Shown here: piece after piece, positions 42,795 through 59,195 of the stretch | Layout of the letters: every line of letters begins with the position of its first letter | How positions within the stretch are numbered: the stretch's first letter is position 1 | NCBI GenBank assembly: GCA_024239055.1 | Contig: JANBVJ010000002.1 | Coordinates: 3,874 to 67,873 of the forward strand | Reading direction: 5' to 3' | Length of the DNA: 64,000 bases | Source of the DNA: Patescibacteria group bacterium | GTDB taxonomy: Bacteria; Patescibacteriota; Minisyncoccia; Minisyncoccales; UBA10102 | Program-made: the position numbers and the translations under genes | The notes under the pieces: generated by a model | The model's input: only the letters and a program-made list of their open reading frames with translations | Told to the model about the DNA's origin: nothing | Database searches by the model: none

Positions 42795-43433
42795 TTACTT
42801 TCTATGCAGACTATCTACAAGCCTCTTTGCCTTCTCAAACTCTTCTTCATTGAAAACATTTGTTGGAAGTCCTAGTTGTTTTCTAGTTTCAATCTCTTTT
42901 ATCACTGAGTTTATTTCATCTGGATATTCCAATCTTTTGTCAGGTAAGATACCAAAGTTTCCTTCAATGAATGCTTCTTCTTGTTCTTGCAAAGTCAGCA
43001 TCAAGTCTGGTGTGAATGGATCTATTCTGTTTCCATCCTTGATGAACTGCTCGTACTTTCTGTTACCACTTTCTAACTTGTCGTTAAAGTCTATGTGTTC
43101 AAACTCATGATCTCCTAATGCTTTGTAGTCTCCTTCTGTCATGTTTGGTTTCTTGTTGAATGTTGCTTCTCCATCTGTTGTATCTACTTTGGCAATCCAA
43201 TCCTCACTTTGTTTTTTATTCTTGAAAGTAATTTTATGAATTTGTTTTCTAACACTCTTTGGTTGCTGTGCAAAAGATTCTGTTACTCCCTTTATCATTC
43301 CGTTGCTTTGAGACTTTTTTAATTTATTTACTATCTTTATTCCTTCAAGTGTTGCAGGAGATCTTCTCTTTCTTACTTTCTTGTAAGATTTGATTGGATG
43401 GAACTTGTTGTTAGAGTCTTTGTAGCCTTTCAT
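42795..43433 (-). CDS. KGFKD-leader family protein (last gene of operon 48653->42795)
   Basis: MKGYKDSNNKFHPIKSYKKVRKRRSP...GIKI; 4-nt overlap upstream; body unlike neighbours. Confidence 0.7.
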   Translation of the reverse strand: MKGYKDSNNKFHPIKSYKKVRKRRSPATLEGIKIVNKLKKSQSNGMIKGVTESFAQQPKSVRKQIHKITFKNKKQSEDWIAKVDTTDGEATFNKKPNMTEGDYKALGDHEFEHIDFNDKLESGNRKYEQFIKDGNRIDPFTPDLMLTLQEQEEAFIEGNFGILPDKRLEYPDEINSVIKEIETRKQLGLPTNVFNEEEFEKAKRLVDSLHRK

Positions 43434-44467
43434 TCTCCCTTCATTGCCTTTTCAATTATTGGAATTACTTCTTCTTTGTGTCTTTCTTCTCCAATTCCAA
43501 TCAAGTCTGTGTCTTTGTCTCCTACAAGTCCTTTGACATCTTCATCTCTGATAATGAAACCATCTTTTGCACTTCCATCCTCTGGAATAACTTCGTAGTG
43601 GTAATCATCAATTACTTGTTTAATCACTCCCCACGTATTATGAAAATCACTCAATTCTGGATCTTCACTTGCAATTTTTACAACTAAACCTGCATAGTAA
43701 CCGGAAGCCTTTGCATCATCTCTTTGTTCTACACCAAATGTTTTTCCTAGAACTGCATTAAGAAAACCTCCTTCTGGTCTAAGACCTTGAACTTGTGCAG
43801 TGGATAATTTTAGTCCGTTCTTATCAGTGATTTTACCTTCTTCTACATCCTGAATGAATTGATTTAATGGTGATAATAGATCTGAAACTGCATATCCATC
43901 TTTTACCTTTACAACTTTGTTGTCAGAAAATCTTCCGTATTTTAGATAACTTCTTTTTGAGTCATCTGCTTCCATCTGAGTCCATTTCTTTAGAAAATCT
44001 TCTATTCTTGACTTTTCTGATTTAGGATCGAAGGTCTGCATTAAGTTCCATGCATCTTTAACTTCCTTTGGTACTTCTTCCCTCTGTTCAATCATTTGTG
44101 GATGGAATCTTGTTTTTGATTTATCACCAATTGTAATTCTTTCTAACTGTCTCGGTCTAAGAATTATTGTTGGCATACCATCATCGTTCTTTCTAATTCT
44201 GAAATATCCTGTAGGCTTTGACCATTTTCCTTTAGGATAATTTTCTCTAATGAAATCTTCCCATTCTGCTGTAACTTTAATTCCTTCTCTAGTTCTTTCA
44301 TCTTTTTTCAAAGTCGTTGCAAACTGAGATGTTGGTCTTGCCTGAAATGAAGTCATCTTCACTCCCTTTGTTTTTTTCAAAGTCCTTATTGGATCTAATG
44401 CTTTTCTAACTTTCTTGTATCGCTGAATTGGATGGAACTTGTTGTTAGAGTCTTTGAAGCCCTTCAC
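43430..44467 (-). CDS. KGFKD-leader family protein
   Basis: MKGFKDSNNKFHPIQRYKKVRKALDPIRTLKKTKGVKM; 345 aa; unique body. Confidence 0.7.
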   Translation of the reverse strand: MKGFKDSNNKFHPIQRYKKVRKALDPIRTLKKTKGVKMTSFQARPTSQFATTLKKDERTREGIKVTAEWEDFIRENYPKGKWSKPTGYFRIRKNDDGMPTIILRPRQLERITIGDKSKTRFHPQMIEQREEVPKEVKDAWNLMQTFDPKSEKSRIEDFLKKWTQMEADDSKRSYLKYGRFSDNKVVKVKDGYAVSDLLSPLNQFIQDVEEGKITDKNGLKLSTAQVQGLRPEGGFLNAVLGKTFGVEQRDDAKASGYYAGLVVKIASEDPELSDFHNTWGVIKQVIDDYHYEVIPEDGSAKDGFIIRDEDVKGLVGDKDTDLIGIGEERHKEEVIPIIEKAMKGE

Positions 44468-45513
44468 TTAAATTCCTCCATAAATCTCATTCTGCTTTCA
44501 AAATCAATTAGAATTTTTCCATCACCAAAGTCTCCTAACTTCTTTTTTAATGCATTTGCTATCTCAGTTTTGTTAAGCATTATCCATGCTTTGTCATTAA
44601 CTGTCTTGGCTTTAAAATCTCTAGTTAATTTAGGATCTTCAATATATCTTATGAAAGTTGAATATCCAATCTTATCTGGATAGTAAGTTATTCGTGTAAT
44701 GTCTTTTGGTGTTATCTGCATGTCCTTGTCAACTCTAATCTCTTGCTCATCAACAAACAATGCGTTTTGTTTTCCACGAATAGGTTCTAGACTCCCTAAA
44801 TCTGAACCACGTTCAAAATCTACTGCTAATACCGGAAAAAAATCCATAGAATAATTTACTTTATTAGCATCCCCTGAATTTCTAATAGAATCTGCATTAT
44901 ACATGATTGAAACTCCTTCATTGAATGTTGCTTTTGCTTGAGATGGATTCATAGTTAATGATACAAAGTCAAAATCTGAATCAAAGTCTGAACCTAAAAT
45001 GCCTTCATCTATGTAGTTATCAATTTCATACATATCTGTCCCACGATAAAATACATTCGTTTTTTTGTACTTCTCATCTGTTAATTTGTTGTAAGCATCA
45101 ACTTCTATCTGCATTTTATTGATAATATCCTTAATCGGTTTATTTTCAGGTTTTTCTATCCAAACTTTCCATATTCTAAGTGAACCATGAAAAACTTCTT
45201 CATCAGTGTATTCTGTAATGGTCATATCAAGCCCATCTAATCCAGAGTTTGAATAATCTATTTGGCTTTGTGGATGTTCGGCATTATACTTGTCAATTAT
45301 ATTAAAAAATCCTGTACTGTGTGTTCCTCTCCCAAATCTTCTTGATATTTTTTCTGAAACGTCAGTTGCAAACTTTGGTGTAATTGTAGTTTGGCTTTGT
45401 CTTTGTAATCTTACTCCCTGAGTTTTTGTAGATGTATCCCTTCGACTACGTACACCTTTGTATTGAGTTATCGGATGAAACTTTCCTTTGGAGTCTTTGA
45501 ATCCACGAGTCAA
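44464..45513 (-). CDS. KGFKD-leader family protein with ADP-ribosyltransferase-like (R-S-ExE) body
   Basis: ORF track 44464..45531. TTG at 45513 (TTGA overlap) gives MTRGFKDSKGKFHPITQYKGVRSRRDTSTKTQGV. Body has VFYRG, FVSLTMN and FVDEQEIRV in ART order. Confidence 0.6.
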   Translation of the reverse strand: MTRGFKDSKGKFHPITQYKGVRSRRDTSTKTQGVRLQRQSQTTITPKFATDVSEKISRRFGRGTHSTGFFNIIDKYNAEHPQSQIDYSNSGLDGLDMTITEYTDEEVFHGSLRIWKVWIEKPENKPIKDIINKMQIEVDAYNKLTDEKYKKTNVFYRGTDMYEIDNYIDEGILGSDFDSDFDFVSLTMNPSQAKATFNEGVSIMYNADSIRNSGDANKVNYSMDFFPVLAVDFERGSDLGSLEPIRGKQNALFVDEQEIRVDKDMQITPKDITRITYYPDKIGYSTFIRYIEDPKLTRDFKAKTVNDKAWIMLNKTEIANALKKKLGDFGDGKILIDFESRMRFMEEFK

Positions 45514-46307
45514 TAGTGTAGTTTCTCCCATAAGTTTACGAGTTTGCTCAAGTTCAAATCATCTATCAGTTTTTTATGATAAGAGTATCCATAAACAATT
45601 TCTGCTACAGCACTGTGTTGTTCATTTGCATACCTTGTCATTGTATCATGACCGTTTTCTTTTAGTTTCTCTTCCATCTCTTGATATGCTTCTGTTGCTT
45701 GATCACTTTCATTATATTCTCCATATTTTTTCTTGTAGTTTTTCCAATCTTCATCATCATCATTCCATTTTCTCCATTTCTCTTCATTATCACGTACATA
45801 ATCATTTACTGGTGGCATTTCGTTAGCAAGTCTATTGAATTCCACAAGTTCTACCCTTCTCCATTTTGTAGATTGATGCCAAAATGTATGACCAATAACT
45901 TCGTGAACAATAAGAGATTTGAAATCATTTGGTGTCATCCTACCATCATCAAAAATTGTTAATTTTTTCTTATCATCATCCCATATACCAACATGTTTTA
46001 CGTGTTCAGAATATTGAATTGTTAGATAATCAATGTGTTTCTTCATTCTCTTTATTGTAAGATCATTATTCCACATTTCTTTAAGTGTCTCAACAATTTC
46101 TTTTCTAGGTGCAGGTTTGCTTCCATGACTCCAACCTCCTGCTGTTGATTCAGCGATGTAAATTCTATTAACGCCTCTAAAACCATAGGTTTGTCTTTTT
46201 CTTTTCAGTCGGATTCCTTGTTGTTCTGGTTCTTCAACTCTTGATTTTCTAACTCCCTTTAACTGAGTTATCGGATGAAATTTTCCATCTCTAGTAAATC
46301 CTTTCAA
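45510..46307 (-). CDS. KGFKD-leader family protein with HExxH (zincin-like) motif
   Basis: TTG start in TTGA overlap; MKGFTRDGKFHPITQLKGVRKSR...GIRLKRK; LIVHEVIGHTFWH. Confidence 0.6.
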   Translation of the reverse strand: MKGFTRDGKFHPITQLKGVRKSRVEEPEQQGIRLKRKRQTYGFRGVNRIYIAESTAGGWSHGSKPAPRKEIVETLKEMWNNDLTIKRMKKHIDYLTIQYSEHVKHVGIWDDDKKKLTIFDDGRMTPNDFKSLIVHEVIGHTFWHQSTKWRRVELVEFNRLANEMPPVNDYVRDNEEKWRKWNDDDEDWKNYKKKYGEYNESDQATEAYQEMEEKLKENGHDTMTRYANEQHSAVAEIVYGYSYHKKLIDDLNLSKLVNLWEKLHY

Positions 46308-47056
46308 TTGAAAATTACCTTGTCAGGAAATATACCTGCTTTTTGTTTTGGAAAATCTAATTGATTAAAGTCACCTATTTTCTGTGCATGTCGATTTTTC
46401 TTTCCAGATTTTTTGTTAAAGTTAACCCACATACCTTGTCCCTGTGTTTCAGTAAACAATGCTCTGGTAGCATCTTTACTATACAATTTTTTATGTTCAA
46501 TGTATGAATTCAGTTCTCCTTCTGGTGTAAATTTTGATTTAGAATTGTAATGTCCGTTGATGTCATGAATTGCACGAAAAACATCATTTACTCTCATTCT
46601 ATCTCCATTTGTGTTTTTGATGTTCGTTAATTGGAACATTGGATGATCCTCTGTACCTTTGTAATCATTATCTGATGGTCTGTATAACAAATTTTTGTTA
46701 TCTTTAACATCTTTGAACATGGCATTAGCATCTTTGTATCCCTCCATCTGGAATTTCATACCTTTCTTTTGTAATTTTCTTGCTTGTTCCAAAGTTTCAT
46801 TGACAAATATCTTATAGGCTTTTTTCACTTGTGGATTATTTGGACTATGTTTTAGATTCTCGTAACCGTTTGCAATGTTTAGACCATAAGCAGGATCTAC
46901 TGTTGGATGTTGTTCAAAGTCCTCAAACTCGTGACTTGCTATCTCCTTTCTTATCCTAACTCCCATTGTTTTTTCTTTCTGATCTCGTGACTTTCTTACT
47001 CCCTTGTGAATTGTTATAGGATGGAACTTGTTGTTTGAATCCTTGAAGCCCTTCAT
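46304..47056 (-). CDS. KGFKD-leader family protein
   Basis: MKGFKDSNNKFHPITIHKGVRKSRDQKEKTMGVRIRK; unique body. Confidence 0.7.
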   Translation of the reverse strand: MKGFKDSNNKFHPITIHKGVRKSRDQKEKTMGVRIRKEIASHEFEDFEQHPTVDPAYGLNIANGYENLKHSPNNPQVKKAYKIFVNETLEQARKLQKKGMKFQMEGYKDANAMFKDVKDNKNLLYRPSDNDYKGTEDHPMFQLTNIKNTNGDRMRVNDVFRAIHDINGHYNSKSKFTPEGELNSYIEHKKLYSKDATRALFTETQGQGMWVNFNKKSGKKNRHAQKIGDFNQLDFPKQKAGIFPDKVIFN

Positions 47057-47748
47057 TTATCCTTACTCCTGTCTCTTGTTTTAAAATCTGTGTTAACTGT
47101 TCCATCTTCGTTGTAACCAATGAATCTACCTTCATCAACTAATTCATTCCAATGTTCAGGACTTGTTATAGGAAAAGAAGCGTAATAATTTCCATGCTTA
47201 TCAGTGTAATCACCAAGCATCCAAATTCCTCTCACTTTTGTATCGTTGAAACGTAACTTTTCTACAGTGAAATAATTTTGTTCTTCTGGATCAATGTAAA
47301 ACATTAGTGGCTTACCAACTTTCTTTACTAAGGAAACTGCTTGGTCTTTTGTTAATGATGCCTCCTTTCTATATTTTTTAAAATTTGTTACTCTTTCCAT
47401 TACATAATCAATATCTTTTTGTTTACCTTCTTTAGAATGATAATGTAAAACAAGATCCTTTTCTCCTTTTACTTTTTCATAACTTGCTTTTGCACCTGAT
47501 GGAAGTGTGAATATTTTTCCTGCCACATGCCTTTGAGGTTTTTCTTTAATTATAGATTCAATTGGTTCACCTTTTTTTGTTGCATCAATTATGTGGGTAA
47601 TTCTTTCAACTAACTGTTCTTCTGGTTCTCTTGCTTTTCTTATCCTAACTCCCCTTGTTTTTTCTTCCTGATCTCGTGACTTTCTTGTTCCCTTCTTGTA
47701 GTCTGTTATCGGATGGAACTTGTTGTTAGAATCTTTGAATCCCTTCAT
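47053..47748 (-). CDS. KGFKD-leader family protein
   Basis: ORF track 47053..47835. Internal ATG at 47748 makes an ATGA overlap with 47745..48653 and gives MKGFKDSNNKFHPITDYKKGTRKSRDQEEKTRGVRIRK. Confidence 0.7.
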   Translation of the reverse strand: MKGFKDSNNKFHPITDYKKGTRKSRDQEEKTRGVRIRKAREPEEQLVERITHIIDATKKGEPIESIIKEKPQRHVAGKIFTLPSGAKASYEKVKGEKDLVLHYHSKEGKQKDIDYVMERVTNFKKYRKEASLTKDQAVSLVKKVGKPLMFYIDPEEQNYFTVEKLRFNDTKVRGIWMLGDYTDKHGNYYASFPITSPEHWNELVDEGRFIGYNEDGTVNTDFKTRDRSKDK

Positions 47749-48653
47749 CTTAGTCCAACTCTTCTTCTCGCTTCCTGTGCTGGTACTCCTTGTTTCACTA
47801 ATTCCATTGCTCTGTGTACATCCGTACTTGGACACTTGCCTCTAGTTAATCCACCAGCACAAATTGGACATAACTTAATTTTAGTTTCTAATTTTCCTTT
47901 ACCAACTGCCTCATAAGGTTCATACCATTTCTGTCTTGGATCATCACATGTAATTATTCTAAGTCTATCTTCATTTCTTACTGTTCTTCTTTCATCAACA
48001 AACTGTCCACCTGCTCCATCAATTATTGTTCCATCTGCAAGTCTGAACCATTCATGAGTCACCTCTTTGTTTACTTTATCATAATCAACACTATTTTCTA
48101 CACCTTCCCCTGTGTAATGTCCTTGTTCTGCAACACCTACACTTTTACCATATTTTTTAAAGATTAAATTTTCTATTTCCTCTGTTACTGCTCCACAAAA
48201 TTCTTCAACCTGACCACTTCTTTGTCCAGTTCTTTCTGCAAAGCCTTCCGGTCTATTCAGATTTCCATCTCCACCTAAGAAACATCCCTTGCGTTTTGCA
48301 GTTCTTTTTAGGATCTTCTGGAAATTATCTTCTACATCTGCAATAATCTCAAATGATTGCAGTTCAGTAGGTGTCATCTCTAGAAGTTTTTTTCTATATC
48401 TTTTCATCCTTGCCTTTGTAACCATTCCTTCAAGTCGCTTTGGATAATTTTTCATGTGCTTTTGGCACATATACTCTCCACACATTCCACAGTATTGTGT
48501 ATCTTTTGAATTGCAGAAATAACATTTGTGACCGGATCTTTCTTTTCTTAGAACTCCCTGAGTTTTTTGAGATGTATCCCTTCGACTACGTACACCTTTG
48601 GTTTGAGAAATTGGATGAAACTTACCAGTGCCATCTTTGAAGCCTTTGACCAT
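47745..48653 (-). CDS. KGFKD-leader family protein with Cys-cluster body (operon-leading MVKGFKD type)
   Basis: MVKGFKDGTGKFHPISQTKGVRSRRDTSQKTQGV; CYFCNSKDTQYCGMCGEYMCQKH and CPICAGGLTRGKC; conserved promoter upstream. Confidence 0.7.
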   Translation of the reverse strand: MVKGFKDGTGKFHPISQTKGVRSRRDTSQKTQGVLRKERSGHKCYFCNSKDTQYCGMCGEYMCQKHMKNYPKRLEGMVTKARMKRYRKKLLEMTPTELQSFEIIADVEDNFQKILKRTAKRKGCFLGGDGNLNRPEGFAERTGQRSGQVEEFCGAVTEEIENLIFKKYGKSVGVAEQGHYTGEGVENSVDYDKVNKEVTHEWFRLADGTIIDGAGGQFVDERRTVRNEDRLRIITCDDPRQKWYEPYEAVGKGKLETKIKLCPICAGGLTRGKCPSTDVHRAMELVKQGVPAQEARRRVGLR

Positions 48654-48690
48654 TCTACTCTAAAATAGAATCGATCTAATATGCATTAAA
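48654..48690 (-). promoter_or_regulatory. conserved promoter of MVKGFKD-type operon-leading gene
   Basis: Coding strand reads CTTTAATGCATATTAG-N7-CTATTTTAGAGTAGA-ATG. The last 15 nt are identical to those at 58903-58917. Confidence 0.55.
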
Positions 48691-48706
48691 GCCGATTGAC
48701 TTATAA

Positions 48707-48934
48707 TTATGCAGAAATTGGTTTGGTTTTATTTATCTGAGAATCTATGAATTCGTTCTCAGCATTTACCCTTTTTAATACATCAGCAGGAACGCAATCT
48801 CTTTTCATGAATCCTTTGTCAAGAAGATAGATTATCACTGGAATGCTGAAAATCTTATTCTCAATCAAATCTGGTGCAAAATTATTAGGAATATTTTGTT
48901 CTGTATCCCTGTGTTTGTACCTGTATTCGTACAT
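48707..48934 (-). CDS. hypothetical protein (non-family gene between the two array operons)
   Basis: 75-aa ORF; TATA-like CCTTTAATAACTAC about 25 nt upstream of the ATG. Confidence 0.4.
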   Translation of the reverse strand: MYEYRYKHRDTEQNIPNNFAPDLIENKIFSIPVIIYLLDKGFMKRDCVPADVLKRVNAENEFIDSQINKTKPISA

Positions 48935-48980
48935 GAAAAATCTACTTTTTTGTAGTTATTAAAGGATTGTAAGGTAAGTT

Positions 48981-49585
48981 TTACAAAACAGGTTTAGAAC
49001 CCTGCTTTGGAATTTTTACATCTGGTAATCGTACTGGTTTGATACCTCCTTTTTGAGAAATACCAATAATTATTTCTTGAACTTGATTTTTTGCTCTTCT
49101 TATTGCATCTTCTTCTGTAGTAGAAATTGGATATGAAACGTCAAGAAATTGTTTTCCATCTTTTGATTTGTATCCACCAAAAAATGGATGTCTGCCTTTG
49201 TTATCTTGATCAATGTAATTTGATTCTAGTAGTCTAATTCCTATAGCATCAAGTGACTTTGTAGTATTATTAGAGGAACCTATTACCCAAACTCTCTCTG
49301 TATTCTTTTTTGGTTCAAAGAATTTTTTGAAAAATCTTTTGTTTTGTTCCCTTTCTTTGAATAGATAAGCAATATTATCTTCTGGATCATAAGTAAAATC
49401 AGTTTCAGTATTTGTTTCTAAAAAATCTTGAAACCTTTCTATTGCAACTCCAAAATCTAATGCTTTTCTAATTCGTTTCTTTCTTAGAATTATTCCAGTA
49501 GTTGTAACACTACTTCGTTTTTTTTTATTCCTTTGTAATTTCTTATCGGATGAAACTTGTTGTTAGAGTCCTTGAAGCCCTTCAT
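48981..49585 (-). pseudogene. KGFKD-leader family member interrupted by a frameshift at an A9 (plus-strand T9) run
   Basis: ATG 49585 (ATGA overlap) gives MKGFKDSNNKFHPIRNYKGIKK, then stops after 28 codons. Adding one A in the run 49518-49526 opens a frame with no ATG (...KRSSVTTTGIILRKKR... to TAA at 48981-48983), so it is absent from the ORF track. Confidence 0.6.
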
Positions 49586-50271
49586 CGTGATTTACCGAAT
49601 GCTGGAAGTGGTTTATTTTTTGTTAACATTTTAAGTGAATCCCAACCAGTGTTACCCATTCCATTCCAAGCAGAGTCTAAGAAGAATCCAATCATACCTG
49701 CATAAGCAGGTGCTTTATCTGCAAGTCTTTGTACAAGTTCTTTTGGATCTGCACCTGATTCATCACTTCCTAATCTTATCCCACCATAACTTGACATCAC
49801 ATCTGCTACCCAACTAAATCCATCTTTGCCTGCACCAGTATTCTCTTCTAACTCTTTAACAGTCCATGCGTTTTGACTTGCTACATCTTCTTTAATTTTT
49901 GGATGAATGTATCTCCATTGTGGCATTAGAATTACTTCTGCAACATATTTTTTATCTGGTTCAAAGTCGTCACCTGTAGCCTCTTCCATATTGATTAGGT
50001 TGACGTAAATATTACTTGGAATTCTTCTTGTAATCATTGGTTCAGCAACTACATCTATTACTCTGTGAAGTGATCCATCATCTGCATTTCCACTAGGATT
50101 TGAAACAATTTCAGTTGGAGTTTTCAATCCTTTTGGACTACTTGCAACTGTTAATCTTTGTTTTCTGATTTTAGTTCCTTGAGTTTTTGCATTCTGGTCT
50201 CTGGACATTCTTGTTCCCTTTTTGTAGTCTGTGTGAGGATGAAATTTCCCCTTTTCCATGTGACCTTTCAT
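49582..50271 (-). CDS. KGFKD-leader family protein (KGHMEKGKFHPHT variant)
   Basis: MKGHMEKGKFHPHTDYKKGTRMSRDQNAKTQGTKIRKQR. Confidence 0.7.
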   Translation of the reverse strand: MKGHMEKGKFHPHTDYKKGTRMSRDQNAKTQGTKIRKQRLTVASSPKGLKTPTEIVSNPSGNADDGSLHRVIDVVAEPMITRRIPSNIYVNLINMEEATGDDFEPDKKYVAEVILMPQWRYIHPKIKEDVASQNAWTVKELEENTGAGKDGFSWVADVMSSYGGIRLGSDESGADPKELVQRLADKAPAYAGMIGFFLDSAWNGMGNTGWDSLKMLTKNKPLPAFGKSR

Positions 50272-51020
50272 GCTATTGAACCATCCTCATTAAAGTCGTA
50301 TTCATTTGAAATCAAAGTTTCTTTCACTGCTTCATCTGAAAATTGATAATCATAAGAATCACTTAATGATCTCAAAGCATCGTTCATCATATCATCCCAT
50401 TTTTCTGAGGCTTTAATGAGAATATTGAATTCTTTTTCAGTTAATGGTTTTGCTTCTCCTGAATATTGTGCTTCTGCATACAATGGTTCTTTGTAATCAC
50501 TATAACTTTCATCTATGTCTATTTCTCCATTCCATTCATAATCTAGAAACTCTATCTTTGTGGTGTTTTCTCTTTCACTTTTGAATCTAAAGTCAATTTT
50601 TCTTCTTAAAGATTCAGGAATACCAAGCATTTTAGCAAGTTTTTTATCATCTTTGATTTCTAATTCTGGAAACTGAATGAAATGTCCTCTGTCAAAATCA
50701 TAATATTTTTTGCTATATTTTGAGAAAACATCATAATCTGCTAACTTTGTTTTTTTGTCATAGATTAATCCATCATACTCTGCCCAAAAATTATCAAAGT
50801 CTACATTTATGTCACGATTTTCTTCAAGAATTTTTTCCTGTAAATCTTCTGGTGCATCCTCAAATTTCCAAACTTTGAATTCAAGTTTTTTTATTCTAGA
50901 ACCATCAGTTCTTTTCATTCTTACTCCTTCTAACTTTGCAGATTGATCTCGTGACTTTCTTGTTCCCTTCTTGTATTGTGTGTGTGGATGAAAACCATCC
51001 TTTTCCATGTGACCTTTCAA
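50268..51020 (-). CDS. KGFKD-leader family protein (KGH variant), acidic body
   Basis: MKGHMEKDGFHPHTQYKKGTRKSRDQSAKLEGVRMKR; D/E-rich C-terminal body. Confidence 0.7.
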   Translation of the reverse strand: MKGHMEKDGFHPHTQYKKGTRKSRDQSAKLEGVRMKRTDGSRIKKLEFKVWKFEDAPEDLQEKILEENRDINVDFDNFWAEYDGLIYDKKTKLADYDVFSKYSKKYYDFDRGHFIQFPELEIKDDKKLAKMLGIPESLRRKIDFRFKSERENTTKIEFLDYEWNGEIDIDESYSDYKEPLYAEAQYSGEAKPLTEKEFNILIKASEKWDDMMNDALRSLSDSYDYQFSDEAVKETLISNEYDFNEDGSIA

Positions 51021-51895
51021 TTGAATTTCCTCACTACAGTATCACCAACTTTTACATCTCTTGCTAATCTCTGTTGACTTCCCTCAGTAACTTGCTTTTC
51101 CATTCTTTGTTCTCTGGTTGGCTTTAATTCTCCTTCCTTCTTTAGTTTCTCCACTGCATTAACAATTGCATCACGTACCTTTGCTTCTGCTCCTAAGACA
51201 TAATACTCTGCAATATTATAAGTGAAGGTTTCATCTTTCATCTTATCGAAGAATTCTTGGTATGTATTGCTGTCATTGATAAATTCCTTCATTTCTTTTT
51301 TTATCTCTTCACCATGCTCTTCTTCAAAGTCCTCAAACTCGTATCTGTAATCACTATTCCATAGTTCATCAGAAATTTTTTCTATTTGTTCTTCGTTATA
51401 CTCATCTTCCATTTCTTCTAACTCTTCATTTGCTATTGCTCCCTCATCAATGTCTTGATTGAAATGCCATCTAGTGTTGTCACCAGAAATTTCATACAAC
51501 CAACTTCCACCACTCTTTATTTTGCTCATGAGTAGTGGTTTTAATTTATTGAATGTGATTCCTAGACCTTCCATAGATTCAATGAACTCTTCATCGATTT
51601 GACTTTTGTTTACTCTAACCAAGTATCCAATGATGTCATTCTCATCTCCATCCCAATGCCAACCTGCATCAGACCAGTTACCAAGTCTTAACCTACTAAT
51701 CTTACCACCTGTAGTTTCAAATCCCCAATAGTTTTCTGATACACTAACATCCTTTAGTTTTGAACCTGTGATTACTCTTGCTTTTCTTTCAACTTTAACT
51801 CCCTGTATCTTTGCTTGCTGATCTCTTGACTTTCTTACTCCCTTCTTGTAGTCAGTGTGAGGATGGAACTTTCCATCTTGCATGTGTCCTTTCAT
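51017..51895 (-). CDS. KGFKD-leader family protein (KGH variant), highly acidic body
   Basis: MKGHMQDGKFHPHTDYKKGVRKSRDQQAKIQGVKVERKAR; stretches such as EELEEMEDEYNEEQ and EFEDFEEEHGEE. Confidence 0.7.
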   Translation of the reverse strand: MKGHMQDGKFHPHTDYKKGVRKSRDQQAKIQGVKVERKARVITGSKLKDVSVSENYWGFETTGGKISRLRLGNWSDAGWHWDGDENDIIGYLVRVNKSQIDEEFIESMEGLGITFNKLKPLLMSKIKSGGSWLYEISGDNTRWHFNQDIDEGAIANEELEEMEDEYNEEQIEKISDELWNSDYRYEFEDFEEEHGEEIKKEMKEFINDSNTYQEFFDKMKDETFTYNIAEYYVLGAEAKVRDAIVNAVEKLKKEGELKPTREQRMEKQVTEGSQQRLARDVKVGDTVVRKFN

Positions 51896-52425
51896 TCTCT
51901 ATATGTAGCCTCTATTGTTGCAATCAGTCCTTCAAACATAGAATCTTCATACAAGTCAAGTAAACCAATTAACCATTCATCATATTCTTTTTCTGCAAAG
52001 TCAGAGTCAGTTTCAATTCTTTTTGTAAGTTTTTTATCGCTTGTATCAAACCAATCGTCATTAGAAAATGCTTCTTGATATTCAACACTACCAACTCCTT
52101 TGTAAAATGCAGTTATTGTAAAGTATTCTGAATCAGATGTTCCATGTGATCCTGAATATGTTACATCAACATCCCATGTTACATTCTTTAATCTCTGTAA
52201 GTCTGGACTCCATTGATTTTCATTTAATCCTTCAAGTAGGGATTTTTTCAATCTGTCTATTGCCATGTCAAAATTAGTTTCTTCTGCAATTGCTGATTTC
52301 TTTCTTATTCTACTTTCAATCTTAACTCCTGTTGACTTTGTAGATTGATCTCTTGACTTTCTTGTTCCCTTCTTGTTATTTGATATTGGATGGAACTTGT
52401 TGTTGGAATCCTTGAAGCCTTTCAT
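51892..52425 (-). CDS. KGFKD-leader family protein
   Basis: MKGFKDSNNKFHPISNNKKGTRKSRDQSTKSTGVKIESRIRK. Confidence 0.7.
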   Translation of the reverse strand: MKGFKDSNNKFHPISNNKKGTRKSRDQSTKSTGVKIESRIRKKSAIAEETNFDMAIDRLKKSLLEGLNENQWSPDLQRLKNVTWDVDVTYSGSHGTSDSEYFTITAFYKGVGSVEYQEAFSNDDWFDTSDKKLTKRIETDSDFAEKEYDEWLIGLLDLYEDSMFEGLIATIEATYRE

Positions 52426-53057
52426 GATCGTTTATCTTCCCATTCCCATTGTTTAGTCCAGTAAACTTTCTTTGCTTCATCTAAATTATTTGCTTCAATA
52501 GTAACAAATTCATCTGAATTATTGAAAGCATCAGTGGTGTTTTTAAAATGTTTTATCTTATCATCTCTTGAACTATATCCCAAAACAAAACTTTTTTTAT
52601 CTTTTTTGTATCTGAAATCTTTCATAGCAGTTCCCTGAACAACAGGATAACCAATCTGGTTTTGCATTCTGTTTGGATCTTTATTCCATACTATGATAAA
52701 GTCATCAACTGCCTGACCATAACTATCTGCCATTACAACTGTATCTGATCCTTTTACTTTTTTGTGTTTTTTCATATCAGTTACATGCATGATGTATGGT
52801 TTTCTTCTATTGTTAGTGTTCACATGTGTATCGTATGTTGGTATTCCATTTCGCTTTGCTCGCAATACAACTTGGTTTAATGCCTTTGAGAATGTGGCAG
52901 GGACACCTCTGTTAAGGAGTTTGATCTGTTCTTTGTTTACTTTGGCAATAGAACTTGGTTGAAGTGATACAGACCTAACTGAAACTCCCCTCTTTGGTTT
53001 TATTGGAAATGATTTTCTATTCTTACCTTTGCCTTTTGAAATATATCTAACTGCCAT
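52422..53057 (-). CDS. degenerate KGFKD-leader family member
   Basis: MAVRYISKGKGKNRKSFPIKPKRGVSVRS keeps the KG...K.F(H)PI..K.GV spacing only. Confidence 0.55.
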   Translation of the reverse strand: MAVRYISKGKGKNRKSFPIKPKRGVSVRSVSLQPSSIAKVNKEQIKLLNRGVPATFSKALNQVVLRAKRNGIPTYDTHVNTNNRRKPYIMHVTDMKKHKKVKGSDTVVMADSYGQAVDDFIIVWNKDPNRMQNQIGYPVVQGTAMKDFRYKKDKKSFVLGYSSRDDKIKHFKNTTDAFNNSDEFVTIEANNLDEAKKVYWTKQWEWEDKRS

Positions 53058-53926
53058 TATGATCTCCTATGAATTTTCTTGTGTTTACTTAATTCCTCAG
53101 CAGATCTATAAAACTTTCCACAATTATCGCATAGCCCAAAGTCTATACTTGCAGGATTTTTGTTTGGATCATCAAAGTATTTGTCTTTGATAAGGTCTTG
53201 GGAAAGAACTATTCCTTGTTTCCGTAATTCGTCAAAGAATAATGTAGCATCTCTATCCTCTTCTAAAAATACACTATCACCTTCTCTCTTTGAAGAACCA
53301 GAAATTTTATCTTCAATTCCTAAATCTTTTAACATTTCTTTGCTTACTTCGTAATATCCATGAGAAGGATCTTCGTAGAATGTTATTGGTGATGCTAATA
53401 CATTTTTAGTAAGTTCTCTTTTCTTTCTTGTATCTTCCTTTTCTCCAAATGCAACCTTGCCTGATGCCATTGTAATGTAACCTGAAATCATTGGATGATC
53501 TACTTCTACAAACTCTCCTGTTACTTCATCATCAACTTCGATTTTGTTTTCTTTGATGAATTCTTCTTGGTGATCAATGCTATCAAACTCAAACCATTCT
53601 TCTCCGTTTGCAAACCTTACTGATGTAACTGGTCTGCCATCCATCATTTCATGTTTTACTTTAACAATTTCTGAACCAACTGCATTTTCCCACTCCATTT
53701 GTTCCGTAACTGACATGTCGATTGGCATCTCATGATGTGGCATTTCCATTTCCTGTTCTTTTCTATCTCTAACTTTTACATCCCTTTGCATCTGGATTAA
53801 TTTTGCTTGAGGAATTTTTACTCCATCTCTTTTTACATCAAATGGTTCTTCTCGTTTTTTTCTAGGCTTTGCTTTGTAAGTTGTAATTGGATGGAACTTG
53901 TTGTTTGAATCTTTGAAACCTTTCAT
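53057..53926 (-). CDS. KGFKD-leader family protein with C-terminal C2H2 finger
   Basis: MKGFKDSNNKFHPITTYKAKPRKKRE; CDNCGKFYRSAEELSKHKKIH. Confidence 0.7.
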   Translation of the reverse strand: MKGFKDSNNKFHPITTYKAKPRKKREEPFDVKRDGVKIPQAKLIQMQRDVKVRDRKEQEMEMPHHEMPIDMSVTEQMEWENAVGSEIVKVKHEMMDGRPVTSVRFANGEEWFEFDSIDHQEEFIKENKIEVDDEVTGEFVEVDHPMISGYITMASGKVAFGEKEDTRKKRELTKNVLASPITFYEDPSHGYYEVSKEMLKDLGIEDKISGSSKREGDSVFLEEDRDATLFFDELRKQGIVLSQDLIKDKYFDDPNKNPASIDFGLCDNCGKFYRSAEELSKHKKIHRRS

Positions 53927-53928
53927 TT

Positions 53929-54636
53929 TTACTCTCCCCTGTAGTCTTTAGCCCACTCGTATCTGCCAATAAAAGTATCATATTCTGATGGATCACTAGG
54001 ATGACGTTGTACTTTACTTAGAAAGTGTTCAAGTCCAATATCATGTAACATTACCAGATTTTTTGAATCTGCTCTATACATCGCATCGGCATACCTTCCT
54101 TCAAATAATGCTTCACCAAAATGTCCATGACCTAAAGAACCTCTTCTATATTCTTCTGCAATTTGTGAGTTAGGGAATTTTTCTACATAAATTTGGTAAA
54201 GGTCACTTGCTTTTGATTTTTGCCAGTCTGTGAATTTTCTATCATCTTCTTTGGAAACACCTTCCTTGAAATATCCTTTACGAATTTCCTTTGCTTCTTC
54301 ATCTGAAATAACATTTTCAAGTCTTGCTTTTCTTACACTATTTTCAAGTCTTGCTTTTCTTACACCAACATAGTTTCCTCCACAATCACAAACTCCTGAA
54401 TGATGTGAATGTGCATCCATTTCTAGATGATCTTTGATGTGTTGTTTTACTTCTTGTTGAGTATCTCTCGTAATTTCAGAGTTACAAACTGGACAGAAGC
54501 CAGTTGAACCACTCCACAACCTTTCTTTTCTAATCTTAACTCCCTCAGTCTTTGTAGACTGGTCTCTTGACATTCTTGTTCCCTTTTCGTATTTTGTGTG
54601 AGGATGAAATTTCCCCTTTTCCATGTGACCTTTCAT
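53929..54636 (-). CDS. KGFKD-leader family protein (KGH variant) with zinc-finger-like segment
   Basis: MKGHMEKGKFHPHTKYEKGTRMSRDQSTKTEGVKIRKER; CPVCNSE...H..DH; internal 9-aa duplication VRKARLENS/VRKARLENV. Confidence 0.7.
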   Translation of the reverse strand: MKGHMEKGKFHPHTKYEKGTRMSRDQSTKTEGVKIRKERLWSGSTGFCPVCNSEITRDTQQEVKQHIKDHLEMDAHSHHSGVCDCGGNYVGVRKARLENSVRKARLENVISDEEAKEIRKGYFKEGVSKEDDRKFTDWQKSKASDLYQIYVEKFPNSQIAEEYRRGSLGHGHFGEALFEGRYADAMYRADSKNLVMLHDIGLEHFLSKVQRHPSDPSEYDTFIGRYEWAKDYRGE

Positions 54637-55109
54637 TTCTTTATATCATCACACAACATACACCACTGACTTTCTGGATGATGAATATCTACACCAGAAG
54701 AAGCAACGTGGAATACTTTTCCACCTCTAAATTCGGTTCTTATCGGTTTATTTTTAGATACATGTCTGTACCTTGCAGATCTTTTGAACCTGTCTGGTAC
54801 TTCACATAAAACTGCCTTTACTCCACTTCCACCTAACTGAAATGTTCTGCACTCTCCACCTTTCTTAATTTTATTTGGATCGAACTGCCTAATCCTCAAA
54901 GTGTTTTTCTGAGTATCTACCTTCGTTGATTTAAACTCGTGATCACTTGCCCACTTCTTAGCCTTTGACATGTTGAATTTTTTCTTATCAAATATCAAAG
55001 TCTGAATTTTTGATTTTTCAAACTTTTTTGTTCTTGATGCTTTTGTTACTCCCCTCTTCATTCTTGAGATGGGATGGAACTTGTTGTTAGAATCTTTAAA
55101 GCCCTTCAT
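54633..55109 (-). CDS. KGFKD-leader family protein
   Basis: MKGFKDSNNKFHPISRMKRGVTKASRTKK. Confidence 0.7.
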   Translation of the reverse strand: MKGFKDSNNKFHPISRMKRGVTKASRTKKFEKSKIQTLIFDKKKFNMSKAKKWASDHEFKSTKVDTQKNTLRIRQFDPNKIKKGGECRTFQLGGSGVKAVLCEVPDRFKRSARYRHVSKNKPIRTEFRGGKVFHVASSGVDIHHPESQWCMLCDDIKK

Positions 55110-55486
55110 TATAGGAACCTAATCTCATTTTTTACTTCATCCGGTAATGTTCTTCTTTCCTCTTTGGTTAGTTTTCTTAGATCTTTCTTTAGATCATTTC
55201 TTAATGCTTTTATTACTTGATTATTTTGTTTAATCTGATCTCTTCTCGAAACTGCAAACGCTGAATCTGGACTTGATTCTATCTTATCTGCTATTGCTTC
55301 ATTTCTATCTGTTAATTTTTCTTTTAATGCTACATCTCTGTTAATGTCCTTTTTTATCATTCCAAAAGATTCTTCTCGCTTTGGAAGTCTTAATTCTAAC
55401 TTTGGAACTAATGACTTTCTGGTTTTGCTGTATCTCTTATTCCTTATCGGATGGAACTTTCCCCTCTTATCGGTAAAGCCTTTCAT
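55109..55486 (-). CDS. KGFKD-leader family protein, short coiled-coil body
   Basis: MKGFTDKRGKFHPIRNKRYSKTRKS. Confidence 0.65.
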   Translation of the reverse strand: MKGFTDKRGKFHPIRNKRYSKTRKSLVPKLELRLPKREESFGMIKKDINRDVALKEKLTDRNEAIADKIESSPDSAFAVSRRDQIKQNNQVIKALRNDLKKDLRKLTKEERRTLPDEVKNEIRFL

Positions 55487-56101
55487 CTAAAACACATCCA
55501 CATCGCTAAGGAAAGATTTTACAAATACATTTTCACTTAATCGTTTCAATTTATCCATTGGTGCTTTTTTGAGTACATCTTTTAATTGATCTGATGCTTC
55601 TTGTGAGTAATCATAAGAAGTTGCCAAGAAATTCCCTGCAACATAAAACTCAGTTCCACCTTCAATGTCATTCATAATATCAAAACCTAAAACAGAATCT
55701 ATTTCATTTCTTGCATTTTGTAGAATGTGTTCATATAGAACAGCAACTACATCTACATCTGATAATGATGTTCCTGTGTCATCTGCAAATTCTCTAGCCA
55801 AGTCTGCTACTTCACCACCATCCAAACCAACTTCTTCTCCTTTATCAACTGCTGATGCTATATCACCTGAACCAAAATCTGTAATACTCGAAGTGAATCT
55901 GTCAAACTCTCTAGCCCTTATTTCTGCTGATACAGGTTCAGATTTAAGTTCAAACATTTTTTCAATACTTTTTTCTGGAACTCTTGCTTTTCTTTCAATC
56001 TTAATTCCTGTAATCTTTGCAGATTGATCTCTTGACTTTCTAACTCCCTTTGATTGAGTTATGGGATGGAACTTGTTGTTAGAATCCTTGAAGCCCTTCA
56101 T
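55487..56101 (-). CDS. KGFKD-leader family protein, acidic body
   Basis: MKGFKDSNNKFHPITQSKGVRKSRDQSAKITGIKIERKAR. Confidence 0.7.
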   Translation of the reverse strand: MKGFKDSNNKFHPITQSKGVRKSRDQSAKITGIKIERKARVPEKSIEKMFELKSEPVSAEIRAREFDRFTSSITDFGSGDIASAVDKGEEVGLDGGEVADLAREFADDTGTSLSDVDVVAVLYEHILQNARNEIDSVLGFDIMNDIEGGTEFYVAGNFLATSYDYSQEASDQLKDVLKKAPMDKLKRLSENVFVKSFLSDVDVF

Positions 56102-56823
56102 CTTTTATCATCCTTATGCATAACTTTCTTGAAAGATTTGTCAGATGGATCATACAAAGTCAGATTACCACGATTGTTTAGATTGTAATCATTGTCTGTA
56201 TTACCACTTTCGAATCCTTGACCAGAACCTATACCAAAGAATGCCTTGTCTGCTCCACCTGCTTTTTTTACTGCATCCTCAGTTGTGAATCCATGCTGTT
56301 CGCCTTTTGGTTTTGTAAGATCGTAAAAGTCATTGCCACCATAAATTGTATGAAAATTATCTTCTTCTTCATCATCTTGTTGAATCTCAAATCCTTCTGT
56401 AACCCAATTTACTGCTTCCTCTCCCTCCTTCTCTTGTATTGTTTCTATTTCATTTTGTGATAACTCGTTTCCTTCTTCGTCAGTTGCATAACTTGTAGTG
56501 ACGTATGCTGTCTCTTCATCACTACCATCTACATCCAAGTCGTTCTGAACTCTTTTTTGGAAAAAGTCTTTCTTTATGAAATCAATTACCTCATCGAGAT
56601 TTTTTGCCCTGATATGTGCTGTTTCTTGTCTGTCCCCATCATACTCAGTTGACCTTGTTGAATAAATTACAAAGAGATGTGATTTTACTTTTACTCCATC
56701 TTTTTTGAATCGTTCTTTCATTCTTACTCCCTGAGTCTTTGCAGATTGATCTCTTGACTTTCTTGTACCCTTCTTGTAGTCAGTTATCGGATGGAACTTT
56801 CCATCTTTAGTGAATCCTTTCAA
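56098..56823 (-). CDS. KGFKD-leader family protein, acidic body
   Basis: MKGFTKDGKFHPITDYKKGTRKSRDQSAKTQGVRMKER; EIQQDDEEEDNF. Confidence 0.7.
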   Translation of the reverse strand: MKGFTKDGKFHPITDYKKGTRKSRDQSAKTQGVRMKERFKKDGVKVKSHLFVIYSTRSTEYDGDRQETAHIRAKNLDEVIDFIKKDFFQKRVQNDLDVDGSDEETAYVTTSYATDEEGNELSQNEIETIQEKEGEEAVNWVTEGFEIQQDDEEEDNFHTIYGGNDFYDLTKPKGEQHGFTTEDAVKKAGGADKAFFGIGSGQGFESGNTDNDYNLNNRGNLTLYDPSDKSFKKVMHKDDKR

Positions 56824-56862
56824 CGGAATTTTCCCTCATTGAATGCTCTCTGAACTTTATCT

Positions 56863-57318
56863 TTATCTGATTGCATCTTTTATTGCCCTTCTTGCTTCAC
56901 CTAATGTTGAAAATCCTTGAAATTTACCAAGTGCATTAATGTCACCATCAACATCAATTATTCTAACTGTAAATGCCCTTGCTGAACCTGCATGTTTGAC
57001 AGTTCCTTTATCTGCTTCACTTGTAATAAAATAAATATTTGATTTTTGATAATCTTTCAACTCACCTTCTGACCACATTAATTCTGATAATCTACTTGAA
57101 AAAAATCTCATTGTATCTTTATCAAAGAAATGTGGTGAACCTTTTTCTGCTCTACGTTTTATTTCATCTCCCAAATATCTACCTCTATCAAGAAACTGTT
57201 TCATAGATGTAGTTTTCAGTAAAACTCCTTCTTGTTTTACGTTCTGGTCTCTGGATTTTCTAACGCCTTTGTAATCTGTTATCGGATGGAACTTTCCATC
57301 TCTAGTAAATCCTTTCAT
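56863..57318 (-). CDS. KGFKD-leader family protein
   Basis: MKGFTRDGKFHPITDYKGVRKSRDQNVKQEGVLLK. Confidence 0.7.
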   Translation of the reverse strand: MKGFTRDGKFHPITDYKGVRKSRDQNVKQEGVLLKTTSMKQFLDRGRYLGDEIKRRAEKGSPHFFDKDTMRFFSSRLSELMWSEGELKDYQKSNIYFITSEADKGTVKHAGSARAFTVRIIDVDGDINALGKFQGFSTLGEARRAIKDAIR

Positions 57319-57947
57319 GCGTGTTTTCGAGACTCCATTATTTGTTCAATGACTTGATCCATTAAAGTATCCATTTCATTTTGTGCTCCTTCAAAGTATT
57401 TGTCACGATCACCTATCAATTCATTGTTATCATCTATCTTGTTTAGTTCTTCTATCAGAAGATTGGTTATTGGTAAATCGAACCCTTCATTTTCAAATCT
57501 TCTTACTTCAAAGTCATTACCTTCTCCTTCTAAGTTATCTCCACCATTGTTGAAGATTTCATAATAAAGATTTGATGCTCTTCTATAAAGATCTACATTT
57601 CGATCAGGTGATTCTCCTTCATTTGGAACTAATTTATTTAATACATCTGCTTCATTTTGATATTTTCCTTTTTGACTCCAATAGGATCTTTCAATATCTC
57701 TTGCTTTTCTTTCACCATGAATTAATTCTACATTTGCTAAATTCTTTCTACAACTTGGACATTTATTTGATACAGGACTATAATGATGTGTCAAATCGGT
57801 TTTACAGAAAGGACAATGTAAAGAATCTCTTGCTTTTCTTTCAACCTTAACTCCTGTTGACTTTGTAGATTGATCTCTAGATTTTCTAGTTCCCTTCTTG
57901 TAGTCAGTTATTGGATGGAAAGTTCCATCTCTTGTAAAGCCTCTCAT
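57315..57947 (-). CDS. KGFKD-leader family protein with zinc ribbon
   Basis: ORF track 57315..57962. ATG at 57947 (ATGA overlap) gives MRGFTRDGTFHPITDYKKGTRKSRDQSTKSTGVKVERKAR; CPFC...CPSC. Confidence 0.7.
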   Translation of the reverse strand: MRGFTRDGTFHPITDYKKGTRKSRDQSTKSTGVKVERKARDSLHCPFCKTDLTHHYSPVSNKCPSCRKNLANVELIHGERKARDIERSYWSQKGKYQNEADVLNKLVPNEGESPDRNVDLYRRASNLYYEIFNNGGDNLEGEGNDFEVRRFENEGFDLPITNLLIEELNKIDDNNELIGDRDKYFEGAQNEMDTLMDQVIEQIMESRKHA

Positions 57948-58282
57948 ACTATTAACTTCCAATCCTTTGTATCTGGAATTTTTTTTACTTCTCTTTTAAC
58001 TTCTGGATATTGTTTTGGACTTTTTTCAACTACTTCATATAATCTTCCCCATTTCACATCACCAGCAAAAGTAGAATTCTTTGCAAGAATTATACCTCTC
58101 TTTCCATTTGTTGTTCTTGCTACGAGTGTGCCTCTAAGTCCCTCTCCTTTTTTTGCAATAAACTTGTTGATGTTTGCTTTTCCTTCTGGATTGTCACCTA
58201 CGTTAATTTTTCTTCTAGTCTTACTTGGACTTCTTTTGTTTCTAATCGGATGGAACTTGCCTTTTTTAGTAAAGCCTTTCAT
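57944..58282 (-). CDS. KGFKD-leader family protein (short, basic)
   Basis: ORF track 57944..58309. ATG at 58282 (TAATG overlap) gives MKGFTKKGKFHPIRNKRSPSKTRRK. Confidence 0.65.
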   Translation of the reverse strand: MKGFTKKGKFHPIRNKRSPSKTRRKINVGDNPEGKANINKFIAKKGEGLRGTLVARTTNGKRGIILAKNSTFAGDVKWGRLYEVVEKSPKQYPEVKREVKKIPDTKDWKLIV

Positions 58283-58902
58283 TATAGTTCTGCTCCACAA
58301 TCTTTGCAAATCCCTGTAGAAGTTCCTGTCTTGTAACCCTTATGACATCTCCAACAATATTGTATAGCAGGTCTAGCAAAAACATCTAAGTTTCTAACTG
58401 TACCATCAGGAAACATTGCATGTTTGTAACTTCCATGTCCAGCACCATCTGGTTCTGTCCATGTTTCAACTCTTATGTTACTTCCTCTGTAATCAACAAA
58501 CTCTGGTTCACCAAACTTTATTCCCATCTCCATTAATCTTTTTTTGTTGTCACCATCTGCACGTTCTAATGCTCTATACATATCTCCTGATGCTAAAGCC
58601 TGAACAAAACTACCTCCCATTTTTAGAAATAGATCCCCATGACCCTCTTTAACACTACGAGAATATTCTTTTGAGATAGGTGCATCAGGAAATGCTCTTA
58701 CATAATGCATCCAGTTGTAAGATGGTTTATTTTCTACAATTGTTCTCTTTAGTCTGTACCCTTCATTATCATATTTGGAAGTGTGAAAAACTTTGACTCC
58801 ACCAGTTGGAGTCACCATGTCTTTTGATGGCATCCTTTTTTTTCTTGAAGATTGAGTAATAGGATGAAAAGTACCTTTACTATCCTTGAATCCTTTGACC
58901 AT
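58282..58902 (-). CDS. KGFKD-leader family protein (operon-leading MVKGFKD type) with C-terminal zinc ribbon
   Basis: MVKGFKDSKGTFHPITQSSRKKRMPSKD...GGVKV; CWRC...CKDCG; conserved promoter upstream. Confidence 0.7.
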   Translation of the reverse strand: MVKGFKDSKGTFHPITQSSRKKRMPSKDMVTPTGGVKVFHTSKYDNEGYRLKRTIVENKPSYNWMHYVRAFPDAPISKEYSRSVKEGHGDLFLKMGGSFVQALASGDMYRALERADGDNKKRLMEMGIKFGEPEFVDYRGSNIRVETWTEPDGAGHGSYKHAMFPDGTVRNLDVFARPAIQYCWRCHKGYKTGTSTGICKDCGAEL

Positions 58903-58940
58903 TCTACTCTAAAATAGTCACAATCTATTATCTTTTAAAG
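58903..58940 (-). promoter_or_regulatory. conserved promoter of MVKGFKD-type operon-leading gene
   Basis: Coding strand reads CTTTAAAAGATAATAG-N7-CTATTTTAGAGTAGA-ATG, a near-duplicate of 48654-48690. Confidence 0.55.
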
Positions 58941-59056
58941 CGATTTGCTGAACAAATTTGAACTTGAGAGTGGATTTCCACAACTCAAGCCAGTCACGAT
59001 TCATTCACATATCTCCCTCCCCAATAGAGTTTAATTGAATCAGACATCTAAGGCTA

Positions 59057-59160
59057 AGAAAAATTGTTTAAAAAATGTTTTGTAATTCGTCAATTAAAGG
59101 AGACATTAAAGAAAAATTGTTTGAAAATGTTTTGTAATTCGTCAATTAAAGGAGACATTA
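59057..59160. repeat. tandem direct repeat, 2 x about 52 bp
   Basis: agaaaaattgttt(a)aaaaatgttttgtaattcgtcaattaaaggagacatta occurs at 59057-59108 and 59110-59160, with one substitution and one 1-nt indel, in the divergent intergenic region. Confidence 0.8.
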
Positions 59161-59195
59161 TACTAATTTGTACTAAGTGAACCTGCATTTTTTAC

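Follow-up and report, generated by a model that had tools for sequence, protein, structure and literature searches.

A conserved A9 tract, probably a programmed slippage site, in a leader-tagged gene of a virus-like element from deep-sea sediment

A gene located in an uncultivated virus-like element from deep-sea sediment is split between two reading frames at a run of nine A residues. Comparison with its relatives indicates that this run is probably a conserved programmed slippage site, where the extra nucleotide is most likely a single A added by RNA polymerase. The genome templates an mRNA with nine A, whose translation would yield just a 31-aa leader peptide. In some transcripts RNA polymerase would realign on the T9 template and insert one A, and the resulting A10 mRNAs, decoded normally, would give a 201-aa protein consisting of the leader and a cargo domain. 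Since slippage would occur in a fraction of transcripts, the tract would set a low, constant ratio of the full-length to the leader-only product from one gene.

The kind of recoding is already known, and it is the gene family that is novel. On this reading an apparent 540-nt "non-coding" gap becomes a real gene, missed by every gene caller in at least eight contigs, and expression of the recovered gene depends on non-standard decoding. The locus would be a phylogenetically deep case of productive homopolymer slippage outside insertion sequence (IS) elements and secretion systems. It is unusual in that the site lies in a novel leader-tagged family, is conserved down to ~30% protein identity, and is found in a family where in-frame and out-of-frame orthologs coexist.

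Structure of the split gene

The analyzed stretch of 64,000 nt is referred to as the window. The features of the locus, all on the minus strand, are as follows.

48981..49585, minus strand: whole recoded gene (leader, A9 tract and cargo domain), 605 nt; 201 aa if one A is added
49490..49585, minus strand: templated (zero-frame) ORF, encoding the 31-aa leader-only peptide MKGFKDSNNKFHPIRNYKGIKKNEVVLQLLE, followed by TAA
49518..49526, minus strand: putative A9 slippery tract; T9 on the plus strand, which is the template strand; zero frame AT[A AAA AAA AA]C
48981..49517, minus strand: shifted-frame coding sequence 3' of the tract, RSSVTTTGIILRKKR...PKQGSKPVL, followed by TAA; without a usable start codon
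49029..49454, minus strand: cargo domain, ~140 aa, folded alpha/beta in the AlphaFold2 model
49582..50271, minus strand: upstream leader-family gene, 229 aa; syntenic in L002, L009 and L010
48707..48934, minus strand: small downstream gene, 75 aa; syntenic in L001, L002, L009, L017 and L019

The ATG of the recoded gene (49585-49583) overlaps the TGA of the upstream gene in an ATGA junction and starts MKGFKDSNNKFHPIRNYKGIKK, which is the N-terminal half of the leader common to ~24 tandem paralogs. The A run at 49526-49518 is exactly nine nucleotides long, and the templated frame stops at TAA (49492-49490) after 31 codons. The shifted frame has 193 open codons (49562-48984) and ends in TAA at 48983-48981. 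Given the composition of the coding strand, stop codons are expected to make up ~8.3% of random codons, and thus the chance of a 193-codon open frame is ~5e-8. With one added A the two frames form a 201-aa protein, in which residues 21-41 are the remainder of the family leader and which can be aligned end to end with the in-frame orthologs. Neither ATG nor GTG is present in the shifted frame, and its sole TTG is the last sense codon.

Most of this structure had been described in a first-pass annotation of the same DNA. The leader opened by the ATG at 49585, the restoration of a 201-codon frame by one extra A in the run of nine, the completion of the family leader by the shifted frame down to the TAA at 48981-48983, and the lack of ATG in the downstream frame are all confirmed here. 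The length of the templated frame, given there as 28 codons, has to be corrected to 31.

Separate initiation in the downstream frame, or reinitiation there, was considered and rejected. There is no start codon, and promoter-like matches for this frame are at chance level. Moreover, the second half of the leader stands in the shifted frame right after the tract, and the in-frame orthologs are contiguous fusions.

Apart from the split gene, no frame of the window begins with more than 55 start-less codons, and therefore the assembly is not broadly frameshift-ridden. The A8 run at 57979-57986, where two overlapping open frames could be taken for a second frameshift, is an ordinary ATGA gene junction. 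The A9 tract is the only coding homopolymer of at least 9 nt in the window, the remaining two 9-nt runs being intergenic. These are located at 39830-39838 (immediately past the 3' end of the gene for the GHKL ATPase) and at 42705-42713 (between 42600 and 42795).

Orthologs and conservation of the tract

The first relative found with the restored protein was P0001 (63% identity), whose DNA is L001. Homology of the shifted-frame coding sequence to P0001, L002, L009, L011, L012, L013 and others extends over its entire length. In several relatives the annotation comprised no more than a 31-aa leader peptide or a short C-terminal fragment preceded by a "gene-less" gap of 250-390 nt, and their DNA has the same architecture as the window.

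Eight lineages are out of frame and need one additional base, namely the window lineage (to which L015 and L016 belong), L002, L009/L010, L011, L012, L013, L017 and L019. The tract context in all of them is NNA-AAA-AAA-AAC (A9), and the downstream homologous frame is open for 175-190 codons in all eight. Every out-of-frame copy requires a single inserted A, so the direction of the shift is the same throughout. Other orthologs keep the tract while being in frame: L001, where GTA followed by A9 makes A10 (GTA-AAA-AAA-AAA-CGA), and L007/L008 and L014, with GTG followed by A9. Finally, P0003, P0028, P0030 and P0031 are in frame with an ordinary leader and have no tract. The existence of in-frame and tract-less relatives means that the out-of-frame arrangement is not obligatory for the protein.

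The out-of-frame lineages come from at least seven datasets (ENA, NCBI, Logan and JGI assemblies of different projects). The window lineage probably comes from Arctic Mid-Ocean Ridge sediment, and the relatives come from Loki's Castle sediments and other metagenomes. In the tree of C-terminal domains, the out-of-frame state is present in all three deep clades, down to 29-34% amino acid identity. One of these clades is mostly out of frame (6 of 7 lineages), with the in-frame L001 nested inside.

The three lysines of the tract are encoded as AAA-AAA-AAA in 11 of 11 tract-bearing lineages, including the in-frame ones, despite saturated synonymous divergence. The tract is exactly A9 in ten of the 11, and neither A8 nor A11 occurs among them. 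As a separate observation, L019 has a second long run in the long frame, an A8 (AGA-AAA-AAA-AGA, positions 2418-2425) located 35 nt 3' of its A9 tract.

Selection on the downstream frame and avoidance of A runs

The dN/dS values are 0.30-0.73 for all pairs of out-of-frame lineages, only moderately below 1. In the close pair L002-L009, where synonymous sites are not saturated (dS 0.13), the ratio is 0.44. Neither stops nor frame-breaking indels are found in the downstream frames of the eight out-of-frame lineages. In a simulation of neutral drift, run along terminal branches alone, the probability that the frame stays stop-free is 0.018-0.035 for each of four long terminal branches, and the joint probability for six lineages is ~7e-8.

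Long A runs are strongly depleted in the coding regions of the window. Runs of at least 8 nt occur four times, compared to 23.3 +/- 3.5 in synonymous-codon shuffles (n = 300; the minimum count was 15), and runs of at least 9 nt occur once, with 11.0 +/- 2.5 expected. Among the 23 Lys-Lys-Lys tripeptides encoded in the window just one is pure A, the tract itself (8.1 expected). Outside the tract there are none among 22, with 7.8 expected (P ~7e-5). In particular, A runs of at least 8 nt are depleted in all three codon phases, while the in-phase A7 heptamer A_AAA_AAA is not depleted (25 observed, 18.1 expected). Since the depletion is set by the length of the run and not by its phase, it points to the polymerase rather than the ribosome. 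Such length-dependent avoidance is consistent with a polymerase that slips once a run approaches the length of the RNA-DNA hybrid. The tract itself is under selection.

Another short homopolymer is also rare in the window: CCCC is absent from the coding strand (GGGG on the plus strand), with ~25 occurrences expected from base composition. Synonymous shuffles yield 5.3 +/- 2.1, and most of the deficit is explained by the scarce use of CCC, which encodes 9 of 494 Pro.

Proposed transcriptional slippage and alternative explanations

According to Baranov et al. 2005, functional transcriptional slippage is marked by under-representation of runs together with a conserved extension in the shifted frame (PMC1088944). 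Here, an A/T run of about 9 nt within the coding sequence is present as A9 or A10 in 11 of 11 tract-bearing orthologs, such runs are under-represented in coding regions of the same genome (as seen in the window), and the shifted-frame extension is conserved in eight out-of-frame lineages. Thus, as judged from sequence comparison, the site shows three of the four features by which programmed transcriptional slippage is defined. When bacterial RNA polymerase slips on an A9/T9 run, it adds nucleotides (PMC5009743), and the need for one inserted A is consistent with an insertion-prone bacterial RNA polymerase on such a run. Slippage of an archaeal polymerase on A9 was not found documented in the literature consulted.

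The same 201-aa product would arise if the mRNA stayed A9 and the ribosome shifted by -1 at A_AAA_AAA or A_AAA_AAC within AT-A-AAA-AAA-AAC. The heptamer has the correct zero-frame phase in 8 of 8 out-of-frame lineages, and there is an archaeal precedent at A-AAA-AAT (PMC8211752). Sites of this kind are expected to have stimulators, but neither an RNA structure 3' of the tract nor a Shine-Dalgarno (SD)-like element 5' of it is conserved: folding z-scores are -1.4, -0.4 and +0.5, with different structures, and the upstream hexamers differ (AGGAAT, ACCATT, TTATAT, CGGTAT, CGGTCT). A 6-bp hairpin (AGTAGT/ACTACT) just 3' of the window tract was dropped as a candidate, being missing from the orthologs. 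Given the undepleted in-phase A_AAA_AAA heptamers in the window genes, described above, the heptamer alone evidently does not cause efficient shifting in the host. Moreover, ribosomal frameshifting leaves unexplained why the run is always at least nine nucleotides long and why the in-frame lineages have a pure-A tract. We therefore consider it unlikely. Avoidance by run length rather than by phase, together with the lack of a conserved 3' structure and 5' SD-like element, favors programmed transcriptional slippage.

The length change could also occur in DNA, with replication slippage toggling A9 and A10 within the viral population, so that the cargo would be OFF or ON and the assemblies would mostly show the OFF majority. 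The hypermutable tract is indeed kept by both in-frame and out-of-frame relatives, the A10 in-frame L001 sits within an otherwise out-of-frame clade, and replication slippage equally predicts avoidance of long runs elsewhere (PMC1088944). A toggling tract would be expected to vary, whereas this one is A9 in all but one of the tract-bearing lineages, and for three lineages its length is identical in independent assemblies or samples (as read from consensus sequences). The frame state tracks clades and is not scattered; no in-frame version of any out-of-frame lineage, that is, no ON allele, was found among 5.8 billion proteins; and L002 and L009 are both OFF while accumulating substitutions under purifying selection. 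Phase variation is thus a rather unlikely explanation.

The two remaining explanations fare much worse. Loss of one gene to a frameshift mutation would be tolerable given ~24 paralogs in the window, and a different paralog elsewhere (in L018) is split by an in-frame stop. A plain pseudogene is nevertheless very improbable, as eight diverged lineages share the lesion and keep the downstream frame intact at dN/dS < 1, the joint probability under neutral drift is that given above, and the tract is retained against the genome-wide trend. An assembly error, with A10 as the true sequence, might be suggested by the notoriety of homopolymers as a source of errors and by the A10 reading of L001, but it is scarcely credible. 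The data for the window lineage are Illumina HiSeq 2x150 and give A9 with two assemblers, unrelated studies both give A9 for L009/L010, eight lineages agree on A9, and the A10 of L001 was assembled without trouble. Furthermore, the coding sequences of the window contain 49 A7 runs and yet no other frame-split gene. The comparative data (eight lineages, independent assemblies and run avoidance) thus reject both explanations, which even taken together have a very small probability.

The first-pass annotation had left open a pseudogene, a sequencing error or a slippage switch, and had proposed a comparison with related genomes as a check. This comparison, with its eight diverged out-of-frame lineages, stop-free downstream frames and dN/dS < 1, supports a slippage site and, together with the agreement of independent assemblies, excludes the other two. 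The "switch" part is retained in the sense of a stable, conserved site acting at the level of expression, and not in the sense of a rapidly toggling DNA switch. From the same data we infer that the slip takes place at the RNA level, and neither on the ribosome nor in DNA, and the same status applies to the efficiency of slippage and to any role of the short peptide.

Comparison with known systems

The closest parallels are IS transposases made by transcriptional realignment on A9/T9 runs (PMC1088944; Roseiflexus IS630, PMC5009743). As in the window gene, a 9-nt A run lies between overlapping frames, and the sites are recognized by a conserved shifted-frame extension in run-avoiding genomes; as proposed for the window gene, the templated mRNA gives a short product and the slipped one a fusion. 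Unlike the transposases, the window gene would encode a leader-tagged cargo protein, and some of its orthologs are in frame yet bear the tract.

In Shigella flexneri, transcriptional slippage gives an extended product of mxiE and truncated products of spa33 and mxiA (PMC5009743). As proposed for the window gene, the full-length MxiE protein needs polymerase slippage on a homopolymer, while the in-frame tracts of spa33 and mxiA, with their truncated by-products, resemble the in-frame orthologs of the window gene. The Shigella genes belong to the type III secretion regulon and are experimentally proven, whereas the present case is drawn from sequence comparison.

According to the account of Larsen et al. 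2000 given in PMC1088944, transcriptional slippage on A9 in dnaX of Thermus thermophilus yields two products at a ratio of ~50%. In that account, as proposed for the window gene, a coding A9 run leads to two products from one gene; the templated product is the long one and the slipped product the short one, which matches the in-frame L007 and L014 and not the window. In Citrobacter rodentium tssM, as described in PMC4256274, transcriptional frameshifting rescues an interrupted gene and two length variants are made. Both genes have a premature interruption, and in tssM, by that description, the rescue occurs at the RNA level. There the case concerns one species and a type VI secretion system (T6SS) membrane protein, while the window site is conserved across deep divergence.

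Ribosomal -1 frameshifting is represented by fucA1 of Saccharolobus solfataricus, at A-AAA-AAT (PMC8211752), and by E. coli dnaX (A_AAA_AAG). Both sites resemble the window site in having an in-phase A-rich heptamer and the -1 relation of frames. They are flanked by stimulators (an SD-like element, a stem-loop, rare codons), whereas at the window site none is conserved and the run is always at least nine nucleotides long.

Contingency genes of Neisseria, Haemophilus and Campylobacter have phase-variable homopolymers with length polymorphism within strains and populations. The window family shares with them a simple-sequence tract in the coding region and the presence of in-frame and out-of-frame alleles among relatives, but the length of its tract is essentially fixed at nine.

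Predicted products and the cargo domain

The templated products of the orthologs are leader-only peptides of 26-31 aa, one of which was annotated as a gene by another pipeline (P0044). The tail of the short frame, NEVVL[QHA]LLE*, is conserved in one subclade, formed by the window, L012, L013 and L001. In the same four lineages, the 9-codon overlap shows variation in one of nine third positions of the long frame, compared to 107 of 167 elsewhere (Fisher P = 0.002). The tail is not conserved across the wider family, differing in L002, L011 and L019. Since the conservation is confined to one subclade, these data give a hint, and not more, that the 31-aa peptide has a function and that the overlap codes for both products.

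As predicted from its sequence, the long product is a leader-tagged cargo protein of a novel gene family. Its domain of ~140 aa has an AlphaFold2 alpha/beta model with pLDDT 85.4 and pTM 0.77. A Foldseek search with this model gave no match in PDB, and yielded weak matches to uncharacterized Caudovirales proteins, some of them modules within proteins of 767-1102 aa. Searches of the restored protein and its neighbors against Pfam and PHROGs gave nothing significant. The cargo domain is also fused to other N-termini, being C-terminal in larger proteins (P0015, P0017-P0027). In P0015 it is joined to a region similar to the N-terminal part of a Mu-like portal, this portal match being below the Pfam cut-off. 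The distribution of the domain suggests that it is a mobile, phage-associated module. Several proteins of the P0015/P0017-P0027 set share the motif W[IV]T[IV].G.P[IV].I upstream of the cargo domain.

The consistent association of the cargo domain with slippage control suggests that it is dose-sensitive or conditionally harmful. A more far-reaching interpretation, which we regard as doubtful, is that the A9 tract is a rheostat in a new protein-targeting system of a possibly archaeal deep-sediment virus, and that the 31-aa peptide is functional. The peptide could then compete for, or prime, a receptor that recognizes the leader of ~24 cargo proteins, and polymerase slippage would set the ratio of the peptide to a dose-sensitive cargo protein. 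If this is true and the host is archaeal, it would be the first programmed transcriptional slippage described for an archaeal virus. Retention of the tract in both frame states would provide a natural experiment on the evolution of slippage sites and on the product ratios they set.

Leader family and the surrounding element

The recoded gene is a member of a tandem array, and three further genes of the window bear on the nature of the element.

42795..62163, minus strand: tandem array of ~24 paralogs with a common basic leader of ~40 aa and unrelated C-terminal domains; the recoded gene is one of them
31597-32367: Ku
22587-23411: ATP-dependent DNA ligase
37158-37862: RPA-like OB-fold single-stranded DNA-binding protein (SSB)

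The consensus of the leader is MKGFKDSNNKFHPI..YKKGTRKSRDQ..K..GV.I.K, and an extra member of the family lies outside the array, at 72-614. The leader is conserved as a protein sequence, with synonymous sites free to vary, which fits a targeting or recognition peptide, and the leader family may thus represent a targeting signal for cargo proteins. The paralogs have no matches in Pfam or PHROGs, and the leader scan of GTDB representative genomes did not find the family. IMG/VR gave no match when scanned with the alignment of orthologs, with that of leaders or with the exact pattern of the tract.

Internal proteins of phage T4 combine unrelated cargo with a shared N-terminal capsid-targeting sequence and form a variable array. 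Similarly, in the leader family a short conserved N-terminal leader is found on many unrelated proteins, and by this analogy the leaders may be akin to capsid-targeting sequences of the T4 type. The two differ in that there is no sequence similarity between them, and neither a capsid, nor a protease, nor a cleavage site was found here.

The window has a GC content of 34%, with essentially all genes on one strand, frequent ATGA overlaps and some TTG and GTG starts; this organization is prokaryote-type. In addition to the genes listed above, it encodes a SNF2 helicase, a HerA/FtsK- or terminase-like ATPase, a GHKL ATPase, an MscS-like protein, a methyltransferase and a receiver domain. Ku and the ATP-dependent DNA ligase are a possible end-joining pair, and the RPA-like SSB hints at an archaeal-type replication system or host. 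Scans of the window for tRNAs and Rfam families were empty, and no protease, capsid or portal was recognized in it. Megablast of 12 kb against phage genomes gave no match, and protein-level comparison of two large window proteins with phages gave remote matches only.

A different paralog, in L018 (SDBS01002914.1, 3001-3567), has an in-frame TAA after 34 codons, and an ORF of 145 aa in the same frame resumes eight codons past it. This could be a nonsense pseudogene or, possibly, a case of stop-codon readthrough.

Finally, a conserved element of ~45 nt (..GCTTTAA..ATTAGAT.G...CTATTTTAGAGTAGAATGGTCAAAGG) is found at 58913-58870 and 48664-48620 of the window (minus strand) and at ~1000-1050 of L002. 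It precedes "MVKGF" members of the family that come after short intergenic gaps, and may act as a promoter or mark where a transcription unit begins. The unit preceding this element ends with the recoded gene and the 75-aa gene.
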